Source of the DNA: a virus
Taxonomy: Duplodnaviria; Heunggongvirae; Uroviricota; Caudoviricetes
Reading direction: 5' to 3' (one strand)
IMG/VR virus record: IMGVR_UViG_3300035517_000267
Location: 67,521-131,520 of that record
DNA: 64,000 bases
Made by a program: the position numbers and the translations under genes
Shown here: one piece after another, positions 290-56,215 of the stretch
Position numbering within the stretch: position 1 is the first letter of the stretch
Layout of the letters: each line of letters begins with the position of its first letter
The notes under the pieces: generated by a model
Database searches by the model: none
Seen by the model: the letters and a program-made list of their open reading frames with translations, nothing else
What the model was told of the DNA's origin: nothing

Positions 290-577
290 TTATTCCTCCT
301 CCGTGAAAGCCCAGGTTTCTCCATAATCTGAGAAACGATAAATGTTAATATCTGGACCAGGAGATCCCCAAACGAAGAAAAAACAATTTTCATTTGCGCC
401 TAATTTAAGTTTTTCTTTGCTAATTTCGACTACTTTATCGAGCTTTTTAACTCCATTACCATAGTTGAGGTATCTTTGACCAAACATAAAGCCAAAGATA
501 GACCTCGTTGCATTAGAGTAATATTTCTCAAGTATTTGTTGTTTAGTCATCTTCACTTTCTCCTTTTGCCCTTTCAC
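290..577 (-). CDS. hypothetical protein
   Basis: ORF of 95 aa; its stop overlaps the start of the downstream kinase gene. Confidence 0.4.
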   Translation of the reverse strand: MKGQKEKVKMTKQQILEKYYSNATRSIFGFMFGQRYLNYGNGVKKLDKVVEISKEKLKLGANENCFFFVWGSPGPDINIYRFSDYGETWAFTEEE

Positions 578-2543: not shown

Positions 2544-3840
2544 CGTGTTATCCTATGTTTCCATAGGTACTGACTATCTCTTACTCCGTGAGAAAAGAAT
2601 TTTATATCCTTTCTCACGGAGAATACCATTTCGGTTTTCAGATGCTTCGTTTCCTAAAACATCGCTGCGTACTAATAGCAGCCCTACTCCCAGTCTCACC
2701 CGGGATAGTCGATACGCACAAAAGTTAAAGTGTTACATTCTTCCATGTTTTATAGTTAATTATATCTCTAATCGTGGTAGTAGACACGGAGGGGTATAGA
2801 GTATATAATTCTTTATTTGTCATTCCTTGTTCATGTTTTTTCCGAATATATCTTACATCATCTTCTGTAAGTTTAGCTTTAGGATTTCTAGAACCAGAAG
2901 CCTTTAAAGAGCTATGCTTCTTTTTGTTTTCTTCTGTAAAGACTTCTGGCATTACAAGCTTATAACTACGACCATTATATACATTCCAAAAACTCATTTC
3001 ATTGGTATATCTATTCTTATAGTCCTTATAGACATCTTTCCAATATTCTCCATTGGCGTAGCGCTTCCTTAAATCTATAACCTCTTCATATGTTAATACA
3101 TTACCTTTATTACAAAACTGATTAGAAAATTCAGTATTATAAGGATAACATTCTACCGAGGGAGTTAGATTTGTATAAGTTTGATGGTTGTAGCACTTCC
3201 TAAAAGCTTCATAACTTATCTTATCGCTAAATTCTTCATATAAAAGATAAATTGGAATGTTTCTATGGTCTTTAATATATTGCGCTTCTTCTTGCGTCAA
3301 ACAAGCATTTGCATTATCACTTCCATATTTAGCTTTATCACCCATAGTATACATCCCACCCTTAGCTACATTATAGCCATTAGGGACTAAACTATTTTTT
3401 TCTTGAATTAACTTTATTTCCAGCTCAGAAGCTTCTTCAACGCTAATTCCTTCATAAAGAACTTCAAAGGTAAAATTCTCTTTACCATACTTTTGAATTG
3501 CGTTCGTAATAGCTTGACGTCTCTTTGGATCTCCTATTTTAGAACACTCATTCTGCCAACGCCTCTTGTAATTGTTGGTTATTCCAATATAAATTTTCCC
3601 ATTTATATTATTGGTTATTTGATATACATACATACTTCATTACTCCTTTACAGTTCATATTAGATGTACCCCTACATTAAATATGAAAGTCGGAATAAAC
3701 ACTTTAAACTTTTTTGGTCCGGGATTACCATGAGATAAAAATCTTTTAGGCTTCCCCGGTGCTATATAGGTATTATTTACTTACGAGTTGCCTCAGCCTA
3801 TATAACATTGCTAGTAAGCAATTAGGTATTTAGTAGCCTG
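2544..3840 (-). mobile_element. group I intron interrupting dnaE, carrying a GIY-YIG homing endonuclease gene
   Basis: The DnaE reading frame is broken: exon 1 ends ...DCSQQLV and exon 2 resumes ...IKIDLLSV, aligning to DnaE LLKFDFLGL. The intervening about 1.3 kb holds a free-standing GIY-YIG ORF, and the 3' intron segment (2548-2730) contains GACUA-type core sequence shared with the dnaB intron. Confidence 0.7.
2725..3633 (-). CDS. GIY-YIG homing endonuclease (I-TevI-like, with a C-terminal NUMOD/IENR-type DNA-binding region)
   Basis: MYVYQITNNINGKIYIGITNNYKRRWQNE and NGYNVAKGG form the GIY-YIG motifs. The C-terminal region is related to the second intron endonuclease (MPEVFTE... KTWK). 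Confidence 0.85.
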   Translation of the reverse strand: MYVYQITNNINGKIYIGITNNYKRRWQNECSKIGDPKRRQAITNAIQKYGKENFTFEVLYEGISVEEASELEIKLIQEKNSLVPNGYNVAKGGMYTMGDKAKYGSDNANACLTQEEAQYIKDHRNIPIYLLYEEFSDKISYEAFRKCYNHQTYTNLTPSVECYPYNTEFSNQFCNKGNVLTYEEVIDLRKRYANGEYWKDVYKDYKNRYTNEMSFWNVYNGRSYKLVMPEVFTEENKKKHSSLKASGSRNPKAKLTEDDVRYIRKKHEQGMTNKELYTLYPSVSTTTIRDIINYKTWKNVTL

Positions 3841-5675
3841 ACTAATTGTTGACTACAATCTTCGCTATCATGCAGATCAAACTGTGTTACAATGTCTCCA
3901 TTAGGCACTTTCATTAAGGCGGTTGATTTTGTAAAAGGTTCATCTACAAAAATAACTCCACCAGCGTGCTCTCCGACGCGACATACCAAGCCTTCTATCT
4001 TCTGTGCGACTTCCCAAACTTCAGGATAGTCATTAGTCATGGCATTAACAAAAGTGGGAATTGGTTTAAATCCTTTTTCTTCGTCTCCATAGAAACATTC
4101 TTTAAGTGTGCGGGTTTGCCCTCTATCAGCAGGAATAAGAGACGCAAGATAAAGACCTACATCACTATCTATGCCAAGTCCTCTCGCAGCCGTTTGGATT
4201 GCTGACTTACTTTTTTCAGTTCCAAAAGTAACTACATTAGCCACTCTATCTTGTCCATAAAAATCACGAAGATGTTGGAGCACTTGAGCACGCCTTCCTC
4301 CCTCTATATCGCTATCTATGTCGAGCACAGAAACACGCTCGGGATTCAAAAATCTCCATGAATAGCATTTTGTCTCTTCCCATAATGGATTTATCTGAAT
4401 AATATCGAGCACATATAGCAAGGCAAACCCAACTCCTGAACCACGACCAGGTCCAACTAGAGTTCCTGCATTCCAGCATTCTTCAATCGTCTTTTGAAGA
4501 TTTAAAAAATAAGCACTCCAATGTGTTTTATTTACTTCTGAACTTTTCCAAGTAATTTCAAGATTGCTATTAAGTTCGTCATAAGTTTCTTGATTTTGCA
4601 GTCGAGAGTCTTTCTTTAATTTATCTACAACTGCCCTTGCGAGAATACTATCTCCATCAAAGCTCGATTGAGCGAACGTCCGCAAATAAGGAATTTTTTC
4701 ATACCATTCTTCTTCAATTGTTTTTGTCTCAGGAATTTTCCAGATAAGAGAAGGAATTTTTAGAGGCTTCAAAAGGCTATAATCTTCGCAAGCATCTTTA
4801 ATTTTTCTTATATTCTCATAAGCTGTATTTAGCTGTATCTCTGTAAAATAATCAAAATAAAGCTCTATTTCAGTTGTATCCATTATATAAGTTGTAGCAT
4901 AAAAAGAATCAACTTCTCTTTCACCATCCTGAGAATTAAGAAAAGCTTTGTGAATCGGAGCATCTTCTCTTCGTGTATAGTGAGTATCTGTAGTTATGAT
5001 ATAAGGAATGTTGAGCGTAGAAGAAAGATTAAGAAGGAACTTATTAACTTCTATTTGTTCATCATTTCTGGAAGGCTGCATTTCAAAATAGAAATTACCT
5101 TCTCCAAACAAATGTACCATACTAGTACACCAGTTAATAATTTGTTCATAAACTGTTTCATCATCTGTTATAAGATATTCCAAGATATGTTGCGGAAGCC
5201 AGCCTCCTAGACACGCACTACTTCCTATTACGTTTCCTCTATCTTGTCCTATAATCTCTATAAGATCTTGGTAATAAGTGGGAACCCTCGTCATTCCTCT
5301 TGAAGAATAACTGCGTTCCCATGCTCTTGTTGAAAGTTCTCTTATCTGCTCATGTCCTCTAGCATTTTTTGCTAAAAGAATAAAGTGCCAATACTTATCT
5401 TGTCCAGCAATATAAGTTTCAGGAGATAACCCATCTCGGCAAAGATAAATTTCATTGCCTCTAATAACCTTAAAGTCTGGATGATCTTTCTTTACTTTGC
5501 TATAATACTTTTCAATTTTGACGGCATTACTTATAGTTTCATGCTCGGTAAACGCAATAACTTCATGCCCAAGCTCAATAGCTCGATCTATAGAAGATTC
5601 TATGGTTGAAATGGCGTCGCGTAAGCGCAAATTACTATAATCCGTGTGCCCATGCAATGAACCGGGATAACCCAA
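3822..5675 (-). CDS. dnaE: DNA polymerase III alpha (DnaE-type), 5' exon (PHP domain and N-terminal palm)
   Basis: LHGHTDYS... FTEHE is the PHP domain; NFYFEMQ and GFALLYVLDIIQINPL are DnaE-like. The frame closes at 3822 inside the intron. Confidence 0.8.
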   Translation of the reverse strand: MGYPGSLHGHTDYSNLRLRDAISTIESSIDRAIELGHEVIAFTEHETISNAVKIEKYYSKVKKDHPDFKVIRGNEIYLCRDGLSPETYIAGQDKYWHFILLAKNARGHEQIRELSTRAWERSYSSRGMTRVPTYYQDLIEIIGQDRGNVIGSSACLGGWLPQHILEYLITDDETVYEQIINWCTSMVHLFGEGNFYFEMQPSRNDEQIEVNKFLLNLSSTLNIPYIITTDTHYTRREDAPIHKAFLNSQDGEREVDSFYATTYIMDTTEIELYFDYFTEIQLNTAYENIRKIKDACEDYSLLKPLKIPSLIWKIPETKTIEEEWYEKIPYLRTFAQSSFDGDSILARAVVDKLKKDSRLQNQETYDELNSNLEITWKSSEVNKTHWSAYFLNLQKTIEECWNAGTLVGPGRGSGVGFALLYVLDIIQINPLWEETKCYSWRFLNPERVSVLDIDSDIEGGRRAQVLQHLRDFYGQDRVANVVTFGTEKSKSAIQTAARGLGIDSDVGLYLASLIPADRGQTRTLKECFYGDEEKGFKPIPTFVNAMTNDYPEVWEVAQKIEGLVCRVGEHAGGVIFVDEPFTKSTALMKVPNGDIVTQFDLHDSEDCSQQLVRLLNT

Positions 5676-9038: not shown

Positions 9039-10586
9039 TCAAAAATAATACTTTTGTCTACCTAAAATTTCAAAATCGGTAATTAAAATCTGCGGAGTGA
9101 CCTTAGTAAAATATCTATTTACCGTAGGTCTACCAATAGCAGTTATATTTACGCAACCTAATTCGTTAGAAGTTAATTCTTCTAACTCCTTCTCATTTGA
9201 TTTAAACTTAATCAGTGTTATTCCATTTGATAGTGTTATTTTTAAAGTTGGATTTTTATCTCTAGACATTAATGTTACCATATCTTTTGTCACTGATAAG
9301 TTTTCTACTACAACAAGCGGTTCATCGACATTTGTTGCCCAAAGATTTTTTGAATCTCCTAATTCTAATATTGCTTGTTGATTAACAGATGAACCCGAAT
9401 AAATAAAATCAACCTTATAACAAGGAGAAAATTCTATATCTTTAAGTTGCTCTTCCGACCATTCTACAAATTGATTAAAATTGTGGTCGGAGATGGCTAA
9501 TCCAAAAGCATTTCCATGTCCGCTCGCATATTCAATTAAGCCAGAACTTTCGCAAAAAGCTCGGAAATCTATAAGCTTTGACTTCTCATAACCTCTTGCG
9601 GAACCCGCCCAAATTAATTCTCCATTTGTTGTAGTTGGAGAAAGAATTGCAACAGGTCTTTTGTACTTAGACATTAATTCATTAGCAATTAGTCCTCGCA
9701 CTCCAGCATCTACAGATACATCATGCAATTGAATCAAAAGCAACTTCCGAGAAAGAAGATTGTCTTGCTCTATTATAGACTCTATTTCTGCGGCGCTGGC
9801 ATCTCGAATTTTTGTCTGGCGATTTTTTACGTTAGTGCAAGTCCGCAAAGCTTGTTCAACTCTAGTTTCTTCTTCGCCTTTATGACCGCGTTTCGTTGAA
9901 GGAATTAATTCATTTGCTTTCCATTCAAGCATACTTTCAAAAACCAATCTCTTTTCTTCTTGTGTTCCTACTCTAGTAATTGCATTAATTAAAGGAACTA
10001 TATAAAAAGAGACTCCTAGGGGAGTTAAATCCCCAGTGCCAAGTTGATACTCATTTTTTTGAGCCATACCTTTTATGAATGGATTGCGGAGACTCGTGCG
10101 ACGTAGCCCTTCTTGGATAAGATAATGTGTTTCGATATATCTTGCATCCATCATGTCGCCTTGAAGTCCAATCCCTACTATGTCAAGATAATCATCCGCA
10201 TAAGCAGTCCCGCAAATCCTGTCAAAATATTGACATAACTTATAAACTATTCCTACGCCAGAAAGAGATTTTGTTGGATAGTCACAAAGCTGATTATTGA
10301 CAACACAAGCATATTCGCTTTCTCGCTCCGCAATGTGATGGTCTAATACCACTACATCAATACCTTTTTCGCTTAACTCTTGGTGAATGGCATAATCATT
10401 GCTCGAAGAATCGGGCGCTATAACCAATGTTGTTCCCTCTGGAATTAAACTTATATTAATTCCATGTACTTTACCATCATGAAAATCATAACTAAATTTA
10501 TTCATCGCTGAGGGAAACTGCCTACCAAGGTAGTTGAGCAAAAGTGAGCTTGACGAATATCCATCACAATCCGAGTCCACTTGCAC
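9039..10586 (-). CDS. DHH/DHHA1 phosphoesterase, RecJ-like ssDNA exonuclease
   Basis: VQVDSDCDG (motif I), DVVVLDHH (motif III) and the GHGNAFG DHHA1 motif. The frame stays open upstream to about 10776 (…LKNIEQAAQIIIKHIIDDNAKIF) with an AGGGGGG ribosome-binding site but no canonical start codon, so the N-terminus is probably longer than the ORF track shows. Confidence 0.75.
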   Translation of the reverse strand: MQVDSDCDGYSSSSLLLNYLGRQFPSAMNKFSYDFHDGKVHGINISLIPEGTTLVIAPDSSSNDYAIHQELSEKGIDVVVLDHHIAERESEYACVVNNQLCDYPTKSLSGVGIVYKLCQYFDRICGTAYADDYLDIVGIGLQGDMMDARYIETHYLIQEGLRRTSLRNPFIKGMAQKNEYQLGTGDLTPLGVSFYIVPLINAITRVGTQEEKRLVFESMLEWKANELIPSTKRGHKGEEETRVEQALRTCTNVKNRQTKIRDASAAEIESIIEQDNLLSRKLLLIQLHDVSVDAGVRGLIANELMSKYKRPVAILSPTTTNGELIWAGSARGYEKSKLIDFRAFCESSGLIEYASGHGNAFGLAISDHNFNQFVEWSEEQLKDIEFSPCYKVDFIYSGSSVNQQAILELGDSKNLWATNVDEPLVVVENLSVTKDMVTLMSRDKNPTLKITLSNGITLIKFKSNEKELEELTSNELGCVNITAIGRPTVNRYFTKVTPQILITDFEILGRQKYYF

Positions 10587-10918
10587 AAATATCTTTGCAT
10601 TGTCGTCGATAATATGCTTAATTATAATTTGAGCCGCTTGTTCTATATTTTTAAGTTTCAGGGGTGATAAATTATCCTCTTTTGTTACGTTTAGATAATG
10701 AGGAATATCTTCATAAGCAATTCCTCGGTTTGTAAGAACTTGCTCTAATGCAGAGTAATTTTCATTAATTGAATTTATTAATTCGTATTCTATTATAATT
10801 ACCCCCCTCGTTTAAAACTTATAAAAGCTTGCAGAGGGGACTTCCATAAGGTGAGACATGATAATTTCATTTAATCTCCAGTCGGCGCTCTCATAGATCG
10901 CTCCATATACTATACCTC

Positions 10919-31626: not shown

Positions 31627-32556
31627 TCAACTTCCCAAATCGGGAGTAACCATGAGATTTGTACCATCGCTAACAATGGTAGGAAGTACCCCATCCCACT
31701 TATCAAGCCACTGCTGTGCGATCCAAGTATCAGGCATATTTTCAAGAGCCTGCTGAGTAATTTCAAGAGCTTCCGCTTCGCCCTTAGCTTTTTCAATTGC
31801 AGCCTCTGCCTCGATTGAGGCAACTTCCTTCTCCTGCTCAGCCTGGATTATTGCAGTCTTCTTTTCCTGCTCTGCACGAAGAGCATCCTGTTCTGCGACC
31901 ATCTTAGCTTCAACGCTTGCCTCAAATGCGTCAGAAAAATCAATATCCTGAACTATAACAGATGTAAAGTTAATGTGATACAGATCTTCCAGAGTCTCAA
32001 CCTCATCTGCTACTTCTGCAGACAGACTAGAGCGATTTTCAAGAAGCGTCATGGCGCTATATCTTGCAAATACAATCTTTGCCTTTTCCTGAACGACATT
32101 GGAAAGCTTAGTTTCAAGAATCTCATAAGAACCATATTCTTTAGCAATATCAAGAACATAGTCAGGGTTAATAGCGTACTGGTATTCGATTGCGGCAGTC
32201 ACAGGCTGAGCGTCCATAGTATAAGATGCGAAACTCTCAGAATTAATATGAACTCTCAGGTCATAAGTAGTTACTGTATCGGAAATGGGATTAACAACAT
32301 TAAGACCAGAAGTTATCTCTTTATTAATGTTACCAAAAGTTCTAACAACTCCAATTTCAGTAGAATCAATAATCTGTATTCCACTTGCTATAAAAACAAT
32401 TACAGTTATAAGAATAATGGCGATAATAGCTATCAGCCTAACTGTTCTTACGCCTTTGGTGTTTAAAGCTTCTTTCTCAAGGTATCTAATAACGGAGCCA
32501 AAACCAATAATAATTCCAATAAGAAATATTGCCATGATAACCAAAAATATAATCAT
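31627..32556 (-). CDS. SPFH/band-7 (prohibitin/HflK-like) membrane protein
   Basis: N-terminal transmembrane helix, then an SPFH domain and a C-terminal coiled coil. Confidence 0.65.
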   Translation of the reverse strand: MIIFLVIMAIFLIGIIIGFGSVIRYLEKEALNTKGVRTVRLIAIIAIILITVIVFIASGIQIIDSTEIGVVRTFGNINKEITSGLNVVNPISDTVTTYDLRVHINSESFASYTMDAQPVTAAIEYQYAINPDYVLDIAKEYGSYEILETKLSNVVQEKAKIVFARYSAMTLLENRSSLSAEVADEVETLEDLYHINFTSVIVQDIDFSDAFEASVEAKMVAEQDALRAEQEKKTAIIQAEQEKEVASIEAEAAIEKAKGEAEALEITQQALENMPDTWIAQQWLDKWDGVLPTIVSDGTNLMVTPDLGS

Positions 32557-33116
32557 TTAATATACTCCTTTATATCTTCTATAATTTTTTCTATATGAAC
32601 AGGATAGCAATTATGACTATCCGTTTCAACGTGATAAGATAGAATATTCTGTTTAATTAGTTCGTATTTATCTTTTGTGTGCGAATGCCCGCATATATTT
32701 ATAACCTTAGCTTTTAGTGGTTTAAGTTCATCATAATTAGAAGTAATGGTAGGGAAATGAGAAAGATAAAGATGATACTTTTTATAGACTAGCATAGTAG
32801 ACCACCCAAGAATTTCTTCTACATTATTACAGCTTTCATACATGGCTAGTCGTTGCGAGGTATCATGGTTTCCGCAAATTATATGGAGTTTTCCATTCAT
32901 AGATTCAATTAGTTCTTTATTTGCGGCAAGTGCCTCTTCATTCCCTCCACCAAGACACAAATCTCCTAATACATACACATCATCTTCTGGAAGAACTAGA
33001 GAATTATGTCTTGTAATAATTGCTTCATTCATTTGTTGTATATTATCAAAACCTCGGGATTCCCAGATAAAAGGGCGATCGTGACTAAAATGCCAATCAG
33101 AGGTGAGCCATACCAT
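32553..33116 (-). CDS. calcineurin-like metallophosphoesterase (end-healing phosphatase candidate)
   Basis: SDWHFSH, LGDLC, GNHD and CGHSH metal-binding motifs. Confidence 0.7.
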   Translation of the reverse strand: MVWLTSDWHFSHDRPFIWESRGFDNIQQMNEAIITRHNSLVLPEDDVYVLGDLCLGGGNEEALAANKELIESMNGKLHIICGNHDTSQRLAMYESCNNVEEILGWSTMLVYKKYHLYLSHFPTITSNYDELKPLKAKVINICGHSHTKDKYELIKQNILSYHVETDSHNCYPVHIEKIIEDIKEYIK

Positions 33117-33118
33117 GC

Positions 33119-33604
33119 TTATTCACTTCCTTTTACTTCAATAATTTTATTATATTTATATTTTTCATATTTAGATGCAGGACAAAAATTTTGTTTCATT
33201 TTATACATTATTTTATCGGGTACTTTTTCTCGTCCTTTTCTTTTAGCATTACGCTCAAAACAAATGTTAAAGGGAGTTAAGAAATTAACTGCATATATCT
33301 CAACATCTTTAAGATTCAATTTATCAAGAACTTTATTGCGACTGTATTCATTAATATGAGTAGCATCAATATAAGTATTCTCATTGGTAATAATAGATTT
33401 ATTAATCTGACGAATGAACTCTTTAAAAACAGCATCTTCTTTAGAAAAATATTCTTCATCTTCATTTACCATGCTGAATCGAACAGCATCGCGAGAAACA
33501 CAATAGCCATTTTGTTTAGCTACCCAGCTGCTTTTACCCGATGCCGGAATCCCGCACAAAAGCCAAATCTTTTTCTGCTTCATCTTTATATACTCCGTCC
33601 GCAA
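33119..33604 (-). CDS. P-loop polynucleotide kinase-like protein
   Basis: LLCGIPASGKSSW Walker A; size and motifs resemble the kinase domains of bacterial Pnkp and T4 Pnk. Confidence 0.55.
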   Translation of the reverse strand: MRTEYIKMKQKKIWLLCGIPASGKSSWVAKQNGYCVSRDAVRFSMVNEDEEYFSKEDAVFKEFIRQINKSIITNENTYIDATHINEYSRNKVLDKLNLKDVEIYAVNFLTPFNICFERNAKRKGREKVPDKIMYKMKQNFCPASKYEKYKYNKIIEVKGSE

Positions 33605-34302: not shown

Positions 34303-35193
34303 TTATTCTTCAACATACCTTATATAGCAATCATAGCCTAAATTTGCAAGGTCTTCGGCAACTTTTTGCGCGTTCTCTTTTACTGAGAAAAATCCAACTT
34401 GAACCCTATAGCCCTTCTTCTCGTCATCATATGTAATGAAAGCAGATTCATACGAAAATCCATTAATACCAGATTTAAGACTTTTAATAACTGCAAGATA
34501 GCGCTGAGCATTTTCTTTTTTAGAAAAAAATCCAAGTTGACAGCGATAACCAATTTTTAGCTTTTTTGTCCAAACGGCACAAACAGTATCTACAGATCTT
34601 TCCCATCCGGCATCTGTTATTCTAATACTATCAACATAGGCTGCGACACTTCCGCCGCCATCCATGTTAAGAGCATATTGACAATCAGGAAACTGCTCCA
34701 AAATAACAGTTTGCACAGTTGAGAAAGAAGCTCCGTTACCTTCAATAGTAATGTTAAAAAGAGTATCAGCAGTCCAACCCCAAATATTACGATGTGCGGC
34801 GCCGCTTATTTCACTAGCAGTTTTAATAATGCACTTATTTCCATCTGCTATAAGAGTGGGATAAGAAGAAATATAATGTTTCCAAGCATGATCTGTTGCA
34901 GACCCATAAGCTATTTCTCCATCTGTTGTAATACCCCAACCATCTATATTAGTTGCATCGGAGCTATAGACAACTCCATTAGAAATAACATTAAAAATAC
35001 TATCTCCACTAGATGTGTTGAAGAAGCCTAAGTTTGTAAGAACATTAGGCTTAGTCTCATAAGTGTCCAGCATTTTATTAGGCGCAAGCTTCGGCTGAGT
35101 ACATATATCAAATGAGATATTAGTAATTTCCTTTTTGGGTATTTTAATTACCTGTATTTTCATTCCATTCTGAGTAAAAGATTCATAATTCAT
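34303..35193 (-). CDS. phosphodiester-glycosidase (NAGPA)-like domain protein with two C-terminal SPOR peptidoglycan-binding repeats
   Basis: ALNMDGGGS motif; two repeats of (C/R)QLGFFSKKENAQR... / RVQVGFFSVKENAQK... typical of SPOR domains. Confidence 0.55.
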   Translation of the reverse strand: MNYESFTQNGMKIQVIKIPKKEITNISFDICTQPKLAPNKMLDTYETKPNVLTNLGFFNTSSGDSIFNVISNGVVYSSDATNIDGWGITTDGEIAYGSATDHAWKHYISSYPTLIADGNKCIIKTASEISGAAHRNIWGWTADTLFNITIEGNGASFSTVQTVILEQFPDCQYALNMDGGGSVAAYVDSIRITDAGWERSVDTVCAVWTKKLKIGYRCQLGFFSKKENAQRYLAVIKSLKSGINGFSYESAFITYDDEKKGYRVQVGFFSVKENAQKVAEDLANLGYDCYIRYVEE

Positions 35194-36266
35194 GTGTTAA
35201 ATTCTCCTTCTTTCAAATGTAAAGTTTTTATAAAAGATGCTGTAGTCATTTTTTCAAAGTAGTCGTCTGCATGATCAAAAACATATAGCAAATAATGTGC
35301 TACTTCAGGAGGATAATAAGAGAGAACCTTAATTGCATAATCTTTTTTATTAAGGCAATAAGAACCCATTTCTACCTCTGCCCGCATACAAGCTCTTACA
35401 AGACGAGAGAGCCTATCTTTTATCATATCTATTTTTTCTTGATATTCAGGAGCATAAGTCAAGAATTCGTCCTCTTCACCTTGCCGCACTATTTCAACAA
35501 GAGTAGACAATGAAACAGCTCCGTTGGCTCTTGAATAATGCGCCTTTACATACGCAACAGATTTTACTTTTATACGATTGGTGCCATCGGACACCACAAA
35601 TCCTTCTTTTGTCCAAGGGAAAGTTGAAGCTTTATCTACAATTTCTTTAAGATTAGCAAAGCTGTAACTAGCTGGAGCTTCTATAGGAAGAGGATAATTG
35701 ACATACATTCCATTTTCCTTATTTCGTGCAGCTAAATAATAAATTTTTGTTTCGTCATAAGGAATCACTACACGATTATAGGGTGACACAAGCTCAAACA
35801 TATAGGTATATTTACAATCCAGCATTTGATAAAATTCATTCTTAGAAAAACCAAGGGCTTCCATAAAAAGGTCATAAAAAGTTTTATCAAAATTTCCTAC
35901 TTCTGCTTTTCTTGCATCAATAGTGCCATTGGTTGATATATGCCAACCGTCATGGTACCATACTTTTATCAAGCTTCCATCTATCTTCTCGGTAATCTCT
36001 ACATTATTCCAATTAACAGCTGCGGCATAAGGTTCTCCATAGTTGAAAAATTTATCAAAAGGACGACAAACTATATCCCAAGTGGGTTCATAAAATATAA
36101 TTCCTCGTGCTTCTCTAACGAGCGAATAGGCAAAATCAGAATCAGGCTGAGAATATTTAAAGAGTATATAATTATTATATCTACTAATTTTTAGATTATA
36201 AGGTGCATGAGTAAGCTCTTCTTCCCAATTTTCATGCGAAAGAATATAATTTTTCAATTCACTCAT
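35190..36266 (-). CDS. RNA ligase (Rnl-family nucleotidyltransferase)
   Basis: KxDG motif ITEKIDGSLIKVWY; the N-terminal region resembles T4 Rnl-type ligases. Confidence 0.6.
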   Translation of the reverse strand: MSELKNYILSHENWEEELTHAPYNLKISRYNNYILFKYSQPDSDFAYSLVREARGIIFYEPTWDIVCRPFDKFFNYGEPYAAAVNWNNVEITEKIDGSLIKVWYHDGWHISTNGTIDARKAEVGNFDKTFYDLFMEALGFSKNEFYQMLDCKYTYMFELVSPYNRVVIPYDETKIYYLAARNKENGMYVNYPLPIEAPASYSFANLKEIVDKASTFPWTKEGFVVSDGTNRIKVKSVAYVKAHYSRANGAVSLSTLVEIVRQGEEDEFLTYAPEYQEKIDMIKDRLSRLVRACMRAEVEMGSYCLNKKDYAIKVLSYYPPEVAHYLLYVFDHADDYFEKMTTASFIKTLHLKEGEFNT

Positions 36267-38389: not shown

Positions 38390-38504
38390 AAAGGTATATG
38401 AAAACTAAGAGATAGAAAAACGAACGATATTAAATCGCCTAGAGTAAAAGACTTCTCTTAGGTAAATAGTCTTTTGTTCTATTATGGAAAAGGTAGTGCT
38501 TCAA

Positions 38505-38600
38505 ACATCCCCAGGCAAGAGATTTGAACTTTTACGCTAAACGCGTCTATCAATCAGCTTATAACCGTTCTGATACCGGAAGAGTCCCTAATTTCTATGG
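38505..38600 (-). ncRNA. tRNA-like remnant sharing the T-arm and acceptor 3' half with tRNA-Ser; no complete cloverleaf
   Basis: AAAAGTTCAAATCTCTTGCCTGGGG matches the tRNA-Ser T arm, but no complementary 5' acceptor strand or canonical anticodon arm was found. Confidence 0.25.
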
Positions 38601-38677
38601 CGCTCCCCTCTCACGAGCGCATATAGCTAGATAACAACTGCTATTCCATCGAGTTTTTATGAGTTTTCTTTCTCAAT

Positions 38678-38720
38678 TTCTATATATATTATATCATAAT
38701 TTTATAAAAAAGTAAAAAAG
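38678..38720 (-). promoter_or_regulatory. conserved promoter copy
   Basis: Plus strand tttctatatatattatatcataattttataaaaaagtaaaaaag. Confidence 0.6.
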
Positions 38721-39258: not shown

Positions 39259-39417
39259 ATCTTACCTCCTAGGGTATGGCGGCGGGGGACGGTACTGACC
39301 CGTCTTCCAAGCTTTTAGAGAGCCTTGCATTACCTTTATGCTACCCCGCATTTTCTAATTCTATTATACAGGAAAAATTTCATAAAGTCAAAAAAAAGAG
39401 AGGGTTTATTCCCTCTC

Positions 39418-45979: not shown

Positions 45980-46309
45980 CTATTCAGTCATAGGAATATC
46001 TTTATCAACCCACTCAAGAGTTCCAGTAGAACCCTTTGAAGGGATTTGACCAACGGAAGCAGTGTCGAAGCCATATAATTCAGCTTTAGACCCTGATAAA
46101 ACAAGGCTTTTACCATCAACAGAGAGAGTGGCTTCTCCACCGAAATACTGTAAATTATTCCACGCAGTTTTGCCATTGCCAATTTTGAGTTTACCTGTAT
46201 CTAATTCATAGCCAGGCTCAGCTTCGGCAAGAATAGGATTTACATTTTTCCAGTCTGCGGCATTACCACGCTTAAATTTAAAAGTAGTAGTATAAACAGT
46301 TGTAGCCAT
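45980..46309 (-). CDS. tail-fibre-repeat-like protein
   Basis: GNGKTAWNNLQYFGG motif. Confidence 0.4.
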   Translation of the reverse strand: MATTVYTTTFKFKRGNAADWKNVNPILAEAEPGYELDTGKLKIGNGKTAWNNLQYFGGEATLSVDGKSLVLSGSKAELYGFDTASVGQIPSKGSTGTLEWVDKDIPMTE

Positions 46310-46986: not shown

Positions 46987-47088
46987 TATCTTACCTCCTT
47001 AATAAAAAAGGCGGAGCATAAGCCCCGCCCATAACGTAATAGCACAATAAAACACATATGAATCAAGCAACTGCGAGCTAAACTCGCT

Positions 47089-47269
47089 TGGTAGTCGGTA
47101 CGGGATTCGAACCCGTGACTTCAGCGTTGGAACTAAAAATAAGATTTGAACTTACATCTTTGACCACTCTTCGTCTGAATAAAATCTTATTTCAAATTCA
47201 AAAAGTCAATATTTTTCTTTAAACTATTTTAGCGAAAGGCTGATGACTTAACCTCTTGTCGAACCGACC
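47089..47269 (-). tRNA. tRNA-Glu (UUC) gene interrupted in the anticodon loop by a 106-nt tRNA-like insert (47128-47233)
   Basis: 5' half GGTCGGTTCGACAAGAGGTTAAGTCATCAGC-CTTTC, and 3' half AC-GCTGAAGTCACGGGTTCGAATCCCGTACCGACTACCA. Acceptor (7 bp), D arm, anticodon stem TCAGC/GCTGA, a 4-nt variable loop, canonical T loop TTCGAAT and CCA are all present. The predicted spliced loop CTTTCAC reads UUC. Confidence 0.55.
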
Positions 47270-47687
47270 ATATATAGCTTTTGTTTTAAAAGGAAGCTAT
47301 AAGAAACCTTTGTGATAAGAACCAGAGACTTATCACCCTCACATTTACCCCTGCGATTTTCCCTAGGACTGGGGGATCTTTCCTTTCAGCTTTTTACCCA
47401 GAACTCGAAAGAAAGATATAAATACAAACTGGCTATATTGTTTATAGACTACTAGAAGTCTTAAGATTTTTTGGCTAAATCTTATAACCGTCGCCTTAAG
47501 TAGGTCAAAGCTACAAAAAACCTGTTTTAAAGAGTTTTCTTTCTCCATTAGAGTGAATGACACTATAGATAATTCCCTACAATCTAGATATAATAATTTC
47601 TTTTAATCGAGAAAGAATTAATAAGAAAGAATAACTACAATATTGTAAGTACGTTCCCATTGTTTAAATCCTAGAACGCCAAGGATT

Positions 47688-47774
47688 TGGTGCGAGCGGC
47701 GGGACTCGAACCCGCACGTCCTTGTGGACACGAGATTTTAAGTCTCGGGTGTCTACCACTTCCACCACGCTCGC
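47688..47774 (-). tRNA. tRNA-Leu (UAA), type II
   Basis: GCGAGCGTGGTGGAAGTGGTAGACACCCGAGACTTAAAATCTCGTGTCCACAAGGACGTGCGGGTTCGAGTCCCGCCGCTCGCACCA; anticodon loop CTTAAAA; long variable arm; CCA encoded. Confidence 0.8.
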
Positions 47775-48387
47775 TTATATTTTATGAAAGACCCCTTCGG
47801 GTTGCTATCTGTTCAATCGTAGCTATATTCAGTCAATAGGGAGACAAGAGTGTGCCTAGAGGAGCTACCTCTAAACAGCTTGCCCCAGCTTAGAGCCAAG
47901 TCCCATGGGAGATTGGTTACTCCCAACTTTCACCCACCATTCACATCTTGTATCTGTTAAAACCATTAACATAAAAATTTGATGTAATCTTGGCAGACCA
48001 TTTGGGCTACTCGTACTGTGACCTTATCTTATACACCGATTTCTCGGCTTCAACTGCCAAGTTCCTTAGTGACATTCCAAGGTTTGCAAAAACTGTCACA
48101 TTTTTACCTAACTTGGATTCTTCTCCACAGGAGCGTCTATTGCGGAACCGATAAGACCATACTTTTAACTGCGATTGTGATAGTGCCTTTCTTCCTACAG
48201 AGCTAAAGTTCTTTAGCCTCAACCCAACCTCACGAATTGAGCCGATACAAGATTGCTAGGGTATCCTCTAGTACCTTGCTACTTACGGAAGAAGCCTCAG
48301 CACAATGGCGTTTGTCTACACTGAGTTCTTTCATAATATTTTGTCATTCTTATTTATGTATAGATGGAGAATAACAAAACCACCTTT

Positions 48388-48461
48388 GGCAGTCCCTACT
48401 CGTGACGATCGAGTACCCTCTGATTCAAAGTCAGATGTGCAGTCCGCTACACCAAGGGACT
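48388..48461 (-). tRNA. tRNA-Gln (UUG)
   Basis: AGTCCCTTGGTGTAGCGGACTGCACATCTGACTTTGAATCAGAGGGTACTCGATCGTCACGAGTAGGGACTGCCA. Perfect 7-bp acceptor, anticodon loop CTTTGAA, CCA encoded; the T loop ATCGTCA is non-canonical. Confidence 0.6.
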
Positions 48462-48519: not shown

Positions 48520-48650
48520 CATATATATATTATACTCTTTTTTTATTATTTTTTCAAATTTTCTTTATTTCGTTCAAAAAGATTTTTTCTTTCTTTCTTT
48601 CCTTACCTTGTATATATATTATACTCTTTTTTTATTATTTTTTCAAATAA
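48520..48650 (-). repeat. two direct repeats of about 37 bp (tatatattatactctttttttattattttttcaaat) upstream of the late block; late-promoter candidates
   Basis: Copies at about 48527 and 48611. On the minus strand they read GAGTATAATATATATA, close to the -10 region of the conserved early promoter motif. Confidence 0.4.
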
Positions 48651-48917
48651 AAAATAGGCTGGTTTAAAGTCACAGCCTAGGACTTTTGCACATACATTTA
48701 AGGAATAATAATAGTACAAAAACTATTATACTTCTGAAAAAAACTCTAAAAATATTATATTCTTTTTTTTTTGTTACGGCAAATTATTCTTCTTCGCTAG
48801 TCTTTTCTTCGTTGAGAGCAGCAGTAAGCTCTTTAGCCCCGTCCGCAATATCTTGGAAGATTTTCTTTAAACTTTCTTGGCTCTTTTTACCCAAGATAGA
48901 TAACTTCTCTAAATCTG

Positions 48918-51055: not shown

Positions 51056-52093
51056 TTATTCATCTCCTTTAAGTGTAATCGTAGAATCTTCTTGCTCAAG
51101 ATTGTCGGCAGAAGAAATGTTATAAGTAGTTCCATCAACATTTACATTTGATATATTGTATTCAAACTCACATACTATTTCACCATTTTCAAGAGTAAAA
51201 GGAAATCTACATCTAAAATAGGAAATATCCTGTAAAGTATTTGCAGTAGAATCGCTAAATCTAGTAAAATAATTGCTTTTATCTATATCACTTAATACTA
51301 CTGCGTTTTGTAAAGTGTCAATAACTTGCTTCCAAGCAGTTTCTTCGTCTTGGAGAGCAGAAAACTAAACGTCTTGTGGAACTTTAACTCCACAAAAATA
51401 AACACCATAATTTATAATTATATTATTTAAAAAATCTTTTTCTGCCAAAATTAGTTTTCCTAAATTGTTTAATAAATCTGGGATGACAGAATTTTCAGCC
51501 CTTGCCAATATTCCTAAATATTCGTTATAGGAAATATTGTCAGTTTGGTTAGCCATAACAGTTTCGTTATAACTGTCTATATTTAGCCTTGTATAAATGG
51601 TTATTTTATCATAACTAGGGGAAATAAAGGCGGCTCCCGCACGTCCCCAAGTATTAAACTATGAAGTACGAGAAACATAATCATCAGGAATTGGTGCTAC
51701 TACTATATCTCCTGTTGCATAAGTACCTTGTTTTATTGCTATTTGAGAAGAGAGAGAGGGAGTTATTATCTCTCCCTCTTCTACCACAAGCTACCTTTTT
51801 GATTCTTGTTTGCCCGAAGTCGCGGTAATTAAACCAGTATCACTAACTGTAATAACAGGTTCAGGGCAAAGAACATTAACAGTAGCTTGTTTAAAACCAA
51901 CTAAACCTTCGCTAGGAGTTAAAGTATAAGTGCCATTATCCGTATATGTTTCTTTTACAGAATCATTTAATAATTCTTCTGAATAATAAGGAGCGAAGGT
52001 TTGCTGAGAGCTATCGGTTGGGACTAAAACTTCTTTGATTCCCTCGAAAGAAACACCTTCACCCGATTTATTTAATAAATATACTTGTGGCAT
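51056..52093 (-). CDS. late protein(s) with three in-frame TAG codons and an apparent +1 frame change near 51720
   Basis: MPQVYLL... ends at a TAG (51791) and stays open for 35 codons. An overlapping +1 frame (…YATGDIVVAPIPDDYVSRTS[TAG]FNTWGRAG...) runs into MANQTDN... (51556), crosses another TAG at 51365, and ends at the TAA at about 51056. A frameshift, a sequencing indel, or two overlapping genes are all possible. Confidence 0.35.
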
Positions 52094-52165
52094 TTTAACC
52101 CAGCCTTTCAGGATTTAGTTTCTGTTTGCACCTTTATTTCATCTTCAAAGGAAATATCAACTATT

Positions 52166-53226: not shown

Positions 53227-55480
53227 TTATCTTATTGCTGTAGCGCTTTCAGTAGCGCTATAATCATATATTTGTTTTATTTTTAAAGCATAGTCAGACT
53301 ATACCGGATCTATCCAATCAATGTCTAGCTTTAAAACTCCATCATTCGCATCATAGGAATATACTTGATAGATTTTTAAAGTATCATCTATTTGTACTGG
53401 ATCGATCCAATCAGACGGCTCAGTCTACTCTACTTCTACTTCAATATCATTAACAAATGTTAAAGAATTTTGGACATTTACTATGCTAGTTTGCGGATAT
53501 ATGCACACACAATTTGCATCATTAATAAAATTTATAGAAGAGCTTAAAGCCTCACTATAATCTTTTTGCTCTGCAATATATAAAAGACAATTATTTGAAA
53601 AGTTTAAAACTAAAGATGAATCCTATTTATAATCTTGTTGACTTACTGTATGTAACCTACAATTATTTATAAATTGTGTTTTTGAATCTAAGATTGAACT
53701 ACAATCTTTCCAACTAGCTATATATAAATTATAATTATTTAAGAAGTTTAAGTCTGATTTGAGATTTTCTTTTTGTTCTTGATTACTTATAAGCTATAAT
53801 CTGCGGACGCCGGTAGTATGTAGCGACATATCTTGTTTTGAAGATTGTTCATTCTCGTATATTAGCTTCGCCTAAGCGTTTGCCGCAAACTCCAAGCTAC
53901 TTTCTCCATTATATGTACAATCTACTGTTACAATAGAAAAATCTAAAATAGTAAGAAAATAAGAGTTCAAGAATTGTGTACAAGCTTTACTAGCCAAGTC
54001 CGCACAATTATCAGAAACCAAAGTAGCTCCCAATGAAAGAGTTGAATTTATCGAATTTATTAAATTATTCTAATTATCACTCTTATATACATCTGCTATT
54101 CTATAATTTTTTTGAACTTGAACATTATTTTCAAAACTATCTTTTAAATCTTCTTCTGCTATTAATTGCGCATTAGCTTTTTTAACAATCTAAGCTGTAT
54201 TTTGCAAACTTGCTTCATTTGTTTTAGGAGAAACTAATGCCAATCTTAATCCTAAACTGGTAAAACCTAAAGATTCTTTAAGGTTCGTTGTAGAGATCTC
54301 TCCTGGCATAACAAGAGTTGCATCAAAGTCTTTTTGAACCTTTAACTTTGGAGATTCCAAATTAGCATCAAGGTACCTAGGCTCTATATTAGTGCCACTA
54401 TAATCTTTTTTAATCTAAAAATTTGAGGTTGTATCAAAAAATTTTAAAAAGTCAACTTGACGTATGTCAAGTAGTTTCGCAGACCTTCGTGTATAGAAAT
54501 TATAGGTATCTTTAATGCTCGAAGGAAACGAATGTCTAGTACAATTTAAGGCAAGACTTTTTCTTTTTATTTTAAAAGTATAAGTGTCATTTGATTCTGG
54601 GACAAGGTTTTCTCTGTCTACATTAACCGCAAAATTTTTCCGATGTAATTTATAAGTGTAAGAGTCATTTGATTTTGGAACAAGATTTTCTCTAGATAAA
54701 TCAATAGCTTTATCAAATCTTTTCAAATAATAGGCATAACTATCTGTAAGAGAAAGACCTTTTCTAGTAATATCTTGTGCCCTTGTGCGCCTTCGACCTA
54801 GCAGCGTCCGCACATTTTTATCCTTTAGAAAAAGTCCTTTTCTTTCCAAATTTTTAGCTTTAGTTTTTCGTAAAATCTTAAAACTATCTTTAGTTTTAGA
54901 ATTACTGTTAAATAATTCCAAATTACTTGCATTGCCATCGCGTTTTATAACAAAAGAAAATTTAGCTTTATTTGAGCCTTCTTGATTAGCAAGATTTATT
55001 GCAGTAAAACTTCTTTTAAACTAAAAATTGTCTTGTATATCAGCATTAATATCTCCATCTATACAAACGGTTGCATTTAAGCTATAGATAGGAATAACCG
55101 TATTAGATGTATTAATACTGTTATTATATATTAATAAATCTTCTGCGCGAGTTGAATTCTAAGTCTAAGCAAATGAAAAAAACTCTTCATCGAATGTTTT
55201 TCCTGGGATAATATGAACTATATTATAAGTATTTTGCGGACGCACGCTTACTGATTGTGACACATCTTGGTCTATAGAGCATTTCGCCATACTCTATAGC
55301 CTTATGTCATTAATAGAAATAATATTAGTTTTTTCATCTGCTTTTGTCGGCAGCTAAGTTGTACAATGTAATCGTACATTCATACTAGCCGCAACTGAAT
55401 TATCTCCTATTAATTCTGGCTATTCGTTCTAGATAGTTACGAATGTAAGTCCAGCCGCATTATCAAACTAGGTTGTAGCT
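53227..55480 (-). CDS. large TAG-rich late protein (tail-fibre or tail-like, with DWIDPV and ENLVPxSNDxYTxK repeats); start not resolved
   Basis: ORF 54415-54921 ends in TAG and shares a frame with the TAA at 53227. The 1.3 kb between has no ORF of 60 codons or more in any frame under the standard code, and in-frame TAGs were confirmed at 53299 and 53425. Confidence 0.45.
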
Positions 55481-55558
55481 TTATAGTTTCCTTTTAATAC
55501 AATTGATTTTTCGTTTAGAGGAAGTAATTGATAATATAATAATAAATATTTTTGTTTA

Positions 55559-56215
55559 TTATCCATTTGAGACATCCCTACTTACGCAAGACCATTTGCC
55601 TTCTCCCAACGCTATTCCAACTATTTCATGAAAAGCATTTTGCGTAGTAGCGGCTAGATGACCCACTAGTCCAATTGTATTTTCTTCTAATCCTCCTATA
55701 GCAATAGTAATATAGCTAGATTGAGGTATTGTATAAGATATATAAAACATATCCCCCAGCGTTTTCGCAGGAGGAATTGTAAAGGCAGTTATATCAGTTA
55801 AAGTGCCTAATATATATACATTATTTGCTTTAATAATTCCATCAGATGGCAATGAAGTGTTTACAGTCATGCCAGGCGGAATTGTAGTGTCAGTATATTC
55901 TTTCGCTTGTTTTAAAACATTATTGATTGAGCCTTCTGTATCCTCAGAACCATTTAAAGTATTAATATTCTAAATTATATCTGCGGCGACCTCGGTATGT
56001 GAATCGATCCAGCTTGATACTTCTTTCAATGTATCAAGCGTTTCGGGCGCACCATCAACCACCGCCGCAATTTTTTCATTTACTAATGCTTCTATATCAT
56101 CTGTTGATATATGCTCGGATACAATTTCTTTTATTTGTTCAACAGCTTCTTCTCTTGGTAGGAAATCTTTCGCATCAATGTATTTTTTAGCAAGAGTATA
56201 AGTTGTAAAATCCAT
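55559..56215 (-). CDS. late protein read through one TAG (ORFs 55970-56215 and 55559-55870 fused)
   Basis: TAG at 55970-55972; 33 in-frame codons link to the MTVNTS... ORF; terminal TAA. Confidence 0.55.

Follow-up and report, generated by a model that had tools for sequence, protein, structure and literature searches.

A ROOL RNA gene and an interrupted tRNA-Glu gene in the tRNA array of an uncultivated large phage

The stretch at 47775-48388 of the window (i.e. the whole 64,000-nt DNA that was analysed) is a ROOL RNA (Rumen-Originating, Ornate, Large), and it is a full-length and ordinary member of that family. As a whole, the locus is best explained, with a probability of roughly 0.93, by a minus-strand ROOL gene of an uncultivated large phage, the RNA being presumably released from a precursor in common with tRNAs and, by homology, building a cage. 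As such, the ROOL finding is already known: the family is curated and structurally solved, and the genomic setting is the usual one. About 0.5 kb downstream, at 47089-47269, lies an unusual interrupted tRNA, which is treated separately below.

A ROOL RNA between tRNA-Gln and tRNA-Leu

The first-pass annotation had suggested an Infernal/Rfam run, which settled the identity at once. In the cmscan search of the window against Rfam 15, the ROOL model RF03087 obtained 322.1 bits, against a gathering score of 99.1 (E 7e-75), at 48349-47772 on the minus strand, with model positions 1-574 of 574 covered and no truncation. The last three nucleotides of the match (47772-47774) are the 5' end of tRNA-Leu. 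Four further phage ROOLs score 310-350 bits in the same test, and the copy in the window, falling within this range, is therefore a typical member. It is 578 nt long, for a family mean of 581 nt (PMC5737381). When the Rfam consensus structure was projected onto it, 127 of the 152 ungapped consensus pairs (83.6%) were canonical, the non-canonical ones (ca. 16%) being chiefly found in P1 and in the peripheral 5' helices.

In minus-strand order, the array consists of promoters, tRNA-Gln, a gap of 37 nt, ROOL, tRNA-Leu without any gap, a 418-nt spacer, the interrupted tRNA-Glu and a terminator:

48754..48782, minus strand: third, weaker promoter-like site, TTGCCG-17-TATAAT (10/12)
48618..48646, minus strand: promoter-like site, TTGAAA-17-TATAAT (11/12), within a 38-nt direct repeat
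48529..48557, minus strand: second, identical promoter-like site (11/12), in the other copy of the 38-nt repeat
48387..48461, minus strand: tRNA-Gln(UUG) with encoded CCA (ARAGORN; Rfam tRNA, 46.6 bits), 37 nt upstream of ROOL
47772..48349, minus strand: ROOL RNA gene (cmscan), its body being 48349-47775
47688..47774, minus strand: tRNA-Leu(UAA) (ARAGORN; Rfam tRNA, 55.3 bits), abutting the ROOL 3' end
47270..47687, minus strand: AT-rich spacer of 418 nt, 33.9% GC
47089..47269, minus strand: tRNA-Glu(UUC), interrupted between nt 36 and 37 (excision test), in the ROOL transcription unit
47009..47030, minus strand: predicted intrinsic terminator, with a stem of 9 bp, 7 of them G-C, and then a T-run

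The position of the stretch between tRNA-Leu(UAA) and tRNA-Gln(UUG), both on the minus strand according to ARAGORN and Rfam, is as previously described, and so is its lack of ORFs, the longest overlapping one having at most 71 aa. Its composition had been overstated: the GC content, given as 48%, is 41.2% for 47775-48388 and 42.4% across the ROOL match, and that of the genome, given as near 33%, is 34.8% as the mean of the window. Since about 5% of the 614-nt windows have an equal or higher GC content, the enrichment is real but modest. Among the identities that had been proposed, that of a phage ncRNA was the right one, as this is a structured non-coding RNA in a large phage, although the ROOL family had not been recognised. 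As for further unusual tRNAs, none was found within 47775-48388 by ARAGORN (intron mode included) or Rfam.

The structured RNA is encoded on the minus strand, and its parts are distributed as follows:

48202..48217, minus strand: hairpin GCUAAAGAACUUUAGC, aligned to the consensus ggcggaAAAccgcc, with 5 of 5 pairs canonical
48017..48159, minus strand: conserved ROOL core domain, containing CAAUAGACGC, GAAGAAUCC and GUAUAA, with invariant columns in an alignment of 26 ROOLs
48069..48099, minus strand: core loop-strand pairing, of loop GUGACA (48099-48094) with strand UGUCAC (48074-48069)
47947..48001, minus strand: variable linker, a low posterior-probability, insert-rich segment of the cmscan alignment
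47907..47924, minus strand: hairpin GGGAG-UAACCAAUC-UCCC, aligned to the consensus ggagGUAAuCAAUCCcgcc
47853..47876, minus strand: 3'-domain hairpin with loop UAGCU (47867-47863), the loop lying inside the conserved motif GGUAGCUCC
47775..47790, minus strand: 3' strand of the closing helix P1, paired with 48328-48343, with 12 of the 16 consensus pairs canonical

Both hairpins quoted in the first-pass annotation are thus real parts of ROOL, the first present as GGGAGATTGGTTACTCCC at 47907-47924 and the second as GCTAAAGTTCTTTAGC at 48202-48217, for which the minus-strand reading had been given. The P1 end at 47775 is flush against the start of tRNA-Leu at 47774. No variation was seen across 26 sequences, the window included, in CAAUAGACGC, GAAnAAUCC and other columns of the core, and the motifs common to the window copy and the ROOL family are CAAUAGACGC, GAAnAAUCC, GUAUAA, AGUAGCC, GUGAAAGUU and GUAAnCAAUC. 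The loop GUGACA and the strand UGUCAC form six Watson-Crick pairs out of six and are probably the pseudoknot or kissing-loop pairing of the ROOL core. A core tertiary pairing was recognised as a pseudoknot by covariation (Weinberg et al. 2017) and reassigned to an intermolecular kissing loop by cryo-EM (PMC12286853); the pairing in the window would correspond to the intermolecular bridge B4 of the latter study. Likewise, the loop motif of the 3' domain, GGU(A/C)GCUCC, is present in 18 of the 26 ROOLs, the window copy among them, and the UAGCU hairpin may be related to the self-complementary bridge B6/L18 of PMC12286853.

Concerning the promoters, the window contains 22 occurrences (about one expected) of the extended -10 motif TATAATATATATA, mainly on the minus strand, and the motif therefore seems to define a promoter class of the phage's own. 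On the 3' side of the terminator, the ribosome-binding site AAGGAGG is followed by the ATG of a 99-aa ORF (46986-46687). The window belongs to a large phage, with a DNA polymerase split by a GIY-YIG homing endonuclease, RecJ, two topoisomerase II subunits, a NAD-dependent ligase, a primase, helicases and a tail fibre, and nearly all its genes are on the minus strand. Two ORFs read through TAG gave no family in a PHROG search. Among 25 non-redundant ROOL loci, 20 have a co-oriented tRNA within 300 nt, usually at ca. 25 nt or less, and the context of the window is therefore typical for the family; all the tRNAs in the ROOL loci examined share the strand of ROOL.

Conservation of the structure and other readings of the stretch

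Relatives were collected with a degenerate pattern of the ROOL core, which yielded 86 viral contigs, in 77 of which ROOL was located by nhmmer. The core of the window (48159-48017) was then aligned with 25 non-redundant phage copies (26 sequences in total) using MAFFT, blind to structure, and 44 pairs were counted, i.e. the Rfam helices plus one loop-strand pairing, for the core domain only. Standard pairs occupy 80.7% of the cells, vs. 35-44% after the 3' partners have been shifted by 1-3 columns, and double-sided changes were found in 37 of the 44 pairs. The covariation score of the core is 0.576, a value attained by none of 500 shuffles; the shifted controls give 0.08-0.17. The loop-strand pairing also covaries, with GC in 16 and AU in 9 sequences at one position, and CG in 8, GC in 6 and UA in 5 at the next; in the window, GUGACA/UGUCAC is maintained through a compensatory change with respect to the family consensus GUGGCA/UGCCA. 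A lack of covariation, or a decayed protein-coding gene, had been named as refuting the first-pass reading, and the outcome, with core helices that covary, favours a structured RNA.

The nearest ROOL relatives in the viral and metagenome collections, L025 and L043, have 72% identity over 380 nt, with unrelated flanks. A metagenome scan with a pattern common to the window and L025 returned only L025-like copies (72% identity) and no relative of intermediate divergence. Much closer relatives were reached by an exact-protein look-up with the adjacent 99-aa ORF, which gave nine metagenomic contigs carrying the phage of the window, two of them identical to it across the array and five 97-98% identical. 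The phage is present in JGI samples 3300035501, 3300035502, 3300036769, 3300043095 and 3300043080 and in runs SRR11793810-12 and SRR11794475. Among the 97-98% relatives, the variation in ROOL amounts to 11 substituted sites plus a single indel of 7 nt (18 variable columns), the indel, near 47961, sitting in the variable linker. The pair 47924/47907, which closes the hairpin GGGAG-UAACCAAUC-UCCC, changes from G-C to A-U (47924 G>A, 47907 C>U). Used as a probe in viral contigs, the 99-aa ORF found one distant locus, L087, which is without ROOL, and a 140-aa ORF and the Rnl1-type ligase found no match there. As for cultured phages, tRNA-Leu alone matched at the DNA level, and the best protein identity was below 40%.

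These data bear on three other readings of the stretch. The one that survives best, although quite improbable, is a genuine ROOL which in this phage would serve the tRNA operon only as a passive spacer or as a scaffold for processing, transcribed and then discarded without a function of its own. ROOL is indeed butt-joined to tRNAs with predicted promoters in common, and in Ligilactobacillus salivarius it is non-essential according to Cousin et al. (2017), as cited in PMC12286853. However, compensatory changes maintain the structure both across distant phages and among the 97% relatives, the loop complementarity of intermolecular type is preserved, and a passive spacer would have no need for ca. 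575 nt of conserved architecture.

Even less probable is an RNA with catalytic or self-splicing activity, such as a ribozyme, a group I/II intron or RNase P RNA, in place of a structural ROOL, in line with the "ribozyme-like" element that had been proposed initially. For the discoverers of the family, a large, highly structured and conserved RNA is typical of RNAs with sophisticated biochemistry (PMC5737381). Yet the ROOL model accounts for the entire interval, and no intron, RNase P or ribozyme family was matched at the gathering score or at E<=1; in particular, group I/II introns, RNase P and tmRNA had no Rfam match in the window at the gathering score or around the locus at E<=1. The same two thresholds gave no GOLLD match in the window and around the locus, respectively. 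Moreover, catalysis by ROOL is unreported in PMC12286853 and PMC5737381, and the solved cage has no obvious active site (PMC12286853). Finally, a decayed protein-coding gene, or a GC-richer spacer with chance hairpins, has a negligible probability: the GC enrichment that might suggest it is shared by ca. 5% of the windows and no tool gave evidence for it, no ORF exceeds 71 aa, the covariance model gives E 7e-75, and it is rejected because protein decay would not yield the compensatory substitutions found in 37 of the 44 tested pairs.

The region 47280-47690 had been described as similar to the ROOL stretch, a description that does not hold: it has 33.1% GC, below the mean of the window, no Rfam match at E<=10 and weak fold z-scores (-1.9 on the minus and -1.2 on the plus strand, with unremarkable local windows of 100 nt). 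The spacer itself (47270-47687) is likewise without an Rfam match at E<=10, and an extra copy of the tRNA-like element described below was looked for in it and not found. Its only ORF (61-66 aa) lacks a ribosome-binding site and is not called in the JGI contigs. None of the columns of the spacer varies among six near relatives; since these form only two haplotypes and diverge unevenly along the region (with 0 variable columns out of 423 for the upstream ORF and ca. 30% around the terminator), this invariance was not read as selection, recombination blocks explaining it equally well.

An interrupted tRNA-Glu and related tRNA-shaped inserts

The interrupted tRNA-Glu matters more than the ROOL finding itself. 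Standard ARAGORN misses the gene at 47269-47089, and Rfam instead gives an odd, AT-rich tRNA of 103 nt at 47233-47131. The elements concerned are, in addition to the tRNA-Glu listed above:

47128..47233, minus strand: intervening element of 106 nt, AT-rich and tRNA-shaped (Rfam tRNA, 40.5 bits over 47131-47233)
35190-36266: Rnl1-type RNA ligase (phrog_562, E 1.8e-48; PF09511, 68 bits)
33119-33604: P-loop kinase, a gene of the window phage
32553-33116: calcineurin-type phosphoesterase, a gene of the window phage

The interrupted tRNA is GC-rich and carries the 106-nt insert in its anticodon loop (CUUUC|...|AC). Within the insert, an acceptor stem of 7 bp, D and T arms, a discriminator U and a CCA of its own can be recognised, but no anticodon loop. 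Exact excision of 47233-47128, from its nt 1 through its CCA, leaves a 75-nt tRNA recognised by ARAGORN as tRNA-Glu(UUC), with the loop CUUUCAC and an MFE fold in cloverleaf; in other excision registers, the loop is of suppressor or Trp type or is non-standard. In the 98% identical relative L092, the tRNA-Glu(UUC) between identical flanks is uninterrupted and has this same loop, CUUUCAC, and this constitutes independent support for the excision reading.

To find other cases, viral contigs were scanned with a motif and the candidates subjected to in silico excision. Related elements of 67-69 nt were found to interrupt tRNA-Lys(UUU) in phage contigs L087, L132 and L156, tRNA-Gly(UCC) in L117, L133, L145 and L205, and tRNA-Leu(UAA) in L166. 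They are inserted at 34/35 or 36/37, and in each case a canonical tRNA results from their excision. When seven elements were aligned, all cells (100%) of the acceptor, D and T stems were paired, vs. 42-56% after shifting, and double-sided changes affected 8 of the 16 stem pairs.

Group I introns were considered and rejected, the inserts having 67-106 nt where the core of such an intron needs ca. 200 nt or more, and no intron match being found at E<=10. At the junction, inspected by eye only, the anticodon stem is followed by a 5-nt/6-nt internal loop and by the acceptor helix of the insert; 3-nt bulges flanking a 4-bp helix are absent, and no bulge-helix-bulge motif was thus seen by this inspection.

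We tentatively propose, as a possibility that is on balance unlikely, that the tRNA-shaped elements are true intervening sequences, excised by the tRNA end-processing enzymes of the cell, the exons being resealed by an Rnl1-type ligase of the phage. In T4, Rnl1 and Pnkp repair breaks in anticodon loops. Along a plausible route, RNase P would cut at the 5' end of the insert and an endonuclease after its CCA, leaving exon halves with a 3'-OH and a 5'-phosphate, which the phage ligase could seal into a tRNA. The 3' cut is the weak point of this route, because precise cleavage after an encoded CCA is not a general bacterial rule. Alternatively, a small, mobile element resembling a tRNA could have inactivated the tRNA genes that it interrupts. 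Returning to the splicing proposal, ROOL has its predicted promoters in common with the tRNA-Glu and adjoins a cluster of Rnl1, kinase and phosphoesterase genes in two other phage contigs and, if splicing is true, might belong to the same tRNA supply-and-repair module.

Full-text literature searches found no description of nested or tRNA-like inserts in tRNAs, which by itself does not prove novelty. If the inserts are real introns, genes are being overlooked in phage tRNA annotation, as was this tRNA-Glu by standard ARAGORN. Phages would also have a protein-dependent route of tRNA splicing that is undescribed in bacteria and phages, and their RNA ligases could then connect to something besides the repair of host-inflicted damage.

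Proposed biogenesis of ROOL and comparison with known systems

According to the predicted promoters and terminator, tRNA-Gln, ROOL, tRNA-Leu and tRNA-Glu would be made as one precursor. A cut by RNase P at the 5' end of tRNA-Leu would then produce a ROOL 3' end flush with helix P1, and the 5' side would become free once the 3' end of tRNA-Gln is processed. By homology with ROOL env-120, the resulting RNA of ca. 575 nt would fold as a flat monomer closed by P1, and eight such monomers could be joined by kissing loops and A-minor contacts to form a hollow cage, the linker (ca. 48001-47947) lying inside it. ROOL env-120 was solved by cryo-EM at 3.1 Å as a homo-octameric (D4), RNA-only cage ca. 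28 nm across, at nanomolar concentrations, and its unconserved linker lies inside the cage (Kretsch et al. 2025, PMC12286853). The segment 47947-48001 is, by analogy, equivalent to the region that is disordered within the published cage, and the ROOL of the window would, by homology, likewise assemble as a homo-octamer.

As to its role, ROOL genes occur close to tRNA islands in phages and prophages, and those who solved the structure propose that it encapsulates tRNAs, ribosomes or other cargo (PMC12286853). Our preferred reading, which is speculative, is that of a phage-made RNA container or scaffold tied to the phage tRNAs and to translation takeover; a link to the tRNA/translation programme of the phage seems the most likely role, with low confidence. 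The ROOL of the window is one more phage copy of a curated family with a solved structure, and its value, a modest one, is that of a clean and well-delimited example, with a 3' end fixed by the adjoining tRNA-Leu and a unit bounded by predicted promoters and terminator. Natural compensatory variants are present, and the kissing-loop variant GUGACA/UGUCAC could serve in experiments on assembly specificity.

Compared with known tRNA introns (group I, and the protein-spliced ones of archaea and eukaryotes) and with the anticodon-loop repair by T4 Rnl1/Pnkp, the inserts likewise lie in the anticodon loop, and the exons would also be held together by the tRNA body. The insertion site 34/35 is the classical site of bacterial group I introns in tRNA-Leu(UAA). 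Unlike known tRNA introns, the inserts are themselves tRNA-shaped, with their own CCA.

Concerning large RNAs, GOLLD is a phage and prophage RNA forming a 14-mer cage (PMC12286853). It is also large, ornate, phage-encoded, adjacent to tRNA arrays and cage-forming (PMC12286853), but the ROOL of the window is unrelated to it in sequence and fold. The ROOL-type ncRNA of Ligilactobacillus salivarius belongs to the same family as the window copy. From the account of Cousin et al. (2017) given in PMC12286853 and PMC5737381, it is as abundant as the 16S rRNA, a level that fits the tandem strong promoters predicted in the window. By the same account it resides in a bacterial genome and is expressed and non-essential, whereas the copy in the window belongs to a large phage of lytic type. 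Within the ROOL family (PMC5737381, PMC12286853), the window copy is shorter than env-120 (659 nt) and pairs GUGACA with UGUCAC where GUGGCA/UGCCA is commoner; it otherwise has the same length class, multi-junction structure, motifs, loop-strand pairing, linker and tRNA-adjoining phage context, and nothing in it is different in kind.

Interrupted tRNA genes in the window and in other phages

The tRNA-Glu(UUC) gene of the array, which ARAGORN does not call in standard mode, carries an AT-rich insert of 106 nt in its anticodon loop (nt 36/37). The insert is itself tRNA-shaped, with its own discriminator and CCA, and its exact excision restores the loop CUUUCAC. At the equivalent site of L092, a near relative (98% identical), the tRNA-Glu gene is uninterrupted (3931-4005).

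Window 47089-47269, minus: interrupted tRNA-Glu(UUC) gene, with the insert at 47128-47233

Homologues of this insert, 67-69 nt long, tRNA-shaped and with a CCA end, were found in eight other phage contigs, the terminus being TCA, not CCA, in L133. They break the genes of tRNA-Lys(UUU) (L087, L132 and L156), tRNA-Gly(UCC) (L117, L133, L145 and L205) and tRNA-Leu(UAA) (L166), at positions 34/35 or 36/37, and their excision leaves a canonical tRNA in all cases. The stems of the tRNA-shaped element display covariation.

L087 6899-7041: whole interrupted tRNA gene
L132 756-823: tRNA-shaped insert alone
L156 1034-1101: tRNA-shaped insert alone
L117 1639-1707: tRNA-shaped insert alone
L133 5756-5824: tRNA-shaped insert alone
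L145 1448-1516: tRNA-shaped insert alone
L205 12714-12782: tRNA-shaped insert alone
L166 8551-8617: tRNA-shaped insert alone

Contigs L088 (~790-870) and L090 (~10270-10350) (minus) have an AT-rich, tRNA-like element that resembles these inserts and also carries CCA, with short G+C-rich hairpins nearby and no recognisable tRNA around it; possibly it represents the insert in free-standing form.

Two other kinds of enlarged tRNA genes were observed. Asn- and Asp-type tRNA genes (as typed by ARAGORN) in L087 (2479-3012) and L003 (5829-6386) have anticodon-loop inserts of 458 and 483 nt, which have no intron match in Rfam and consist almost wholly of one PD-(D/E)XK endonuclease ORF (PF11645, 101-105 bits), so that a group I ribozyme would not fit; in L087 a 10-nt inverted repeat flanks the insert and lengthens the anticodon stem. 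As for L025 (5340-5460) and L043 (2068-2189), the closest ROOL lineage beyond the near relatives, an over-long tRNA of 119-122 nt (Rfam 50.9 bits) with a 42-43-nt insert, whose tRNA shape is not obvious, is located in the gap after ROOL.

Promoters and surroundings of the ROOL array

Within the window, the extended -10 motif TATAATATATATA is found at 22 sites vs. about one expected, mostly on the coding strand and in intergenic positions (e.g. 18655, 23425, 38224, 38681, 40978, 48522, 48611 and 56868). These sites constitute a family of phage promoters, and two of them lie in tandem ahead of the ROOL array. A member is also present in a second stretch without ORFs, of about 330 nt (38390-38720, minus), upstream of tRNA-Ser(GCU), together with a T-arm-like motif (38517-38531); an Rfam search of this stretch at E<=1 gave no match.

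Across the array, the six relatives compared differ at 18 columns in ROOL and 20 in the promoter region, and at none in the 418 nt that separate tRNA-Leu from tRNA-Glu (47270-47687). Since just two haplotypes exist among them, this invariance may reflect a recombination block. The tRNA nearest to ROOL is tRNA-Gln(UUG) in the window and in seven of the 25 non-redundant loci; further frequent neighbours are tRNA-Met(CAU) and tRNA-Ser(GCU), in counts that ignore kinship.

Possible TAG recoding and other genes of the phage

Two minus-strand frames contain in-frame TAG codons: 16 in a frame of 784 codons (53230-55581), with neither TAA nor TGA, and three in one of 352 codons (51059-52114). Together with an amber-suppressor-type tRNA(CUA) at 39277-39350, labelled 'Pyl' by ARAGORN, this suggests that some genes of the phage, probably late ones, use TAG as a sense codon. 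A PHROG search with both read-through products found no match.

The DNA polymerase is in two pieces, with a GIY-YIG/HNH-type homing endonuclease gene in between.

Window 543-2543, 2725-3633 and 3822-5675, minus: split DNA polymerase and homing endonuclease region

Two genes downstream of the RNA array, a 109-aa ORF (~45980-46309, minus; L091 5677-6006) has a precomputed Pfam match to Mtd_N (PF18454, major tropism determinant), and may by this sequence match be a candidate target of a diversity-generating retroelement.

RNA ligase, kinase and phosphoesterase genes

The window also encodes an RNA heal-and-seal set of three enzymes, which fits tRNA repair.

Window 32553-33116, minus: calcineurin-type phosphoesterase
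Window 33119-33604, minus: AAA_33 P-loop kinase
Window 35190-36266, minus: T4 RnlA/gp63-type RNA ligase (PF09511)

Homologues of all three lie ~0.3-0.5 kb from ROOL in L081 (2603-4725; ROOL ~5041-5619) and L085 (11145-13253; ROOL ~10096-10673), which form one single ROOL-bearing lineage besides the window. As only these two of the 77 ROOL loci searched have such homologues close by, proximity of ROOL to the ligase set is no general rule. In the window phage, the set may have a bearing on the interrupted tRNA.
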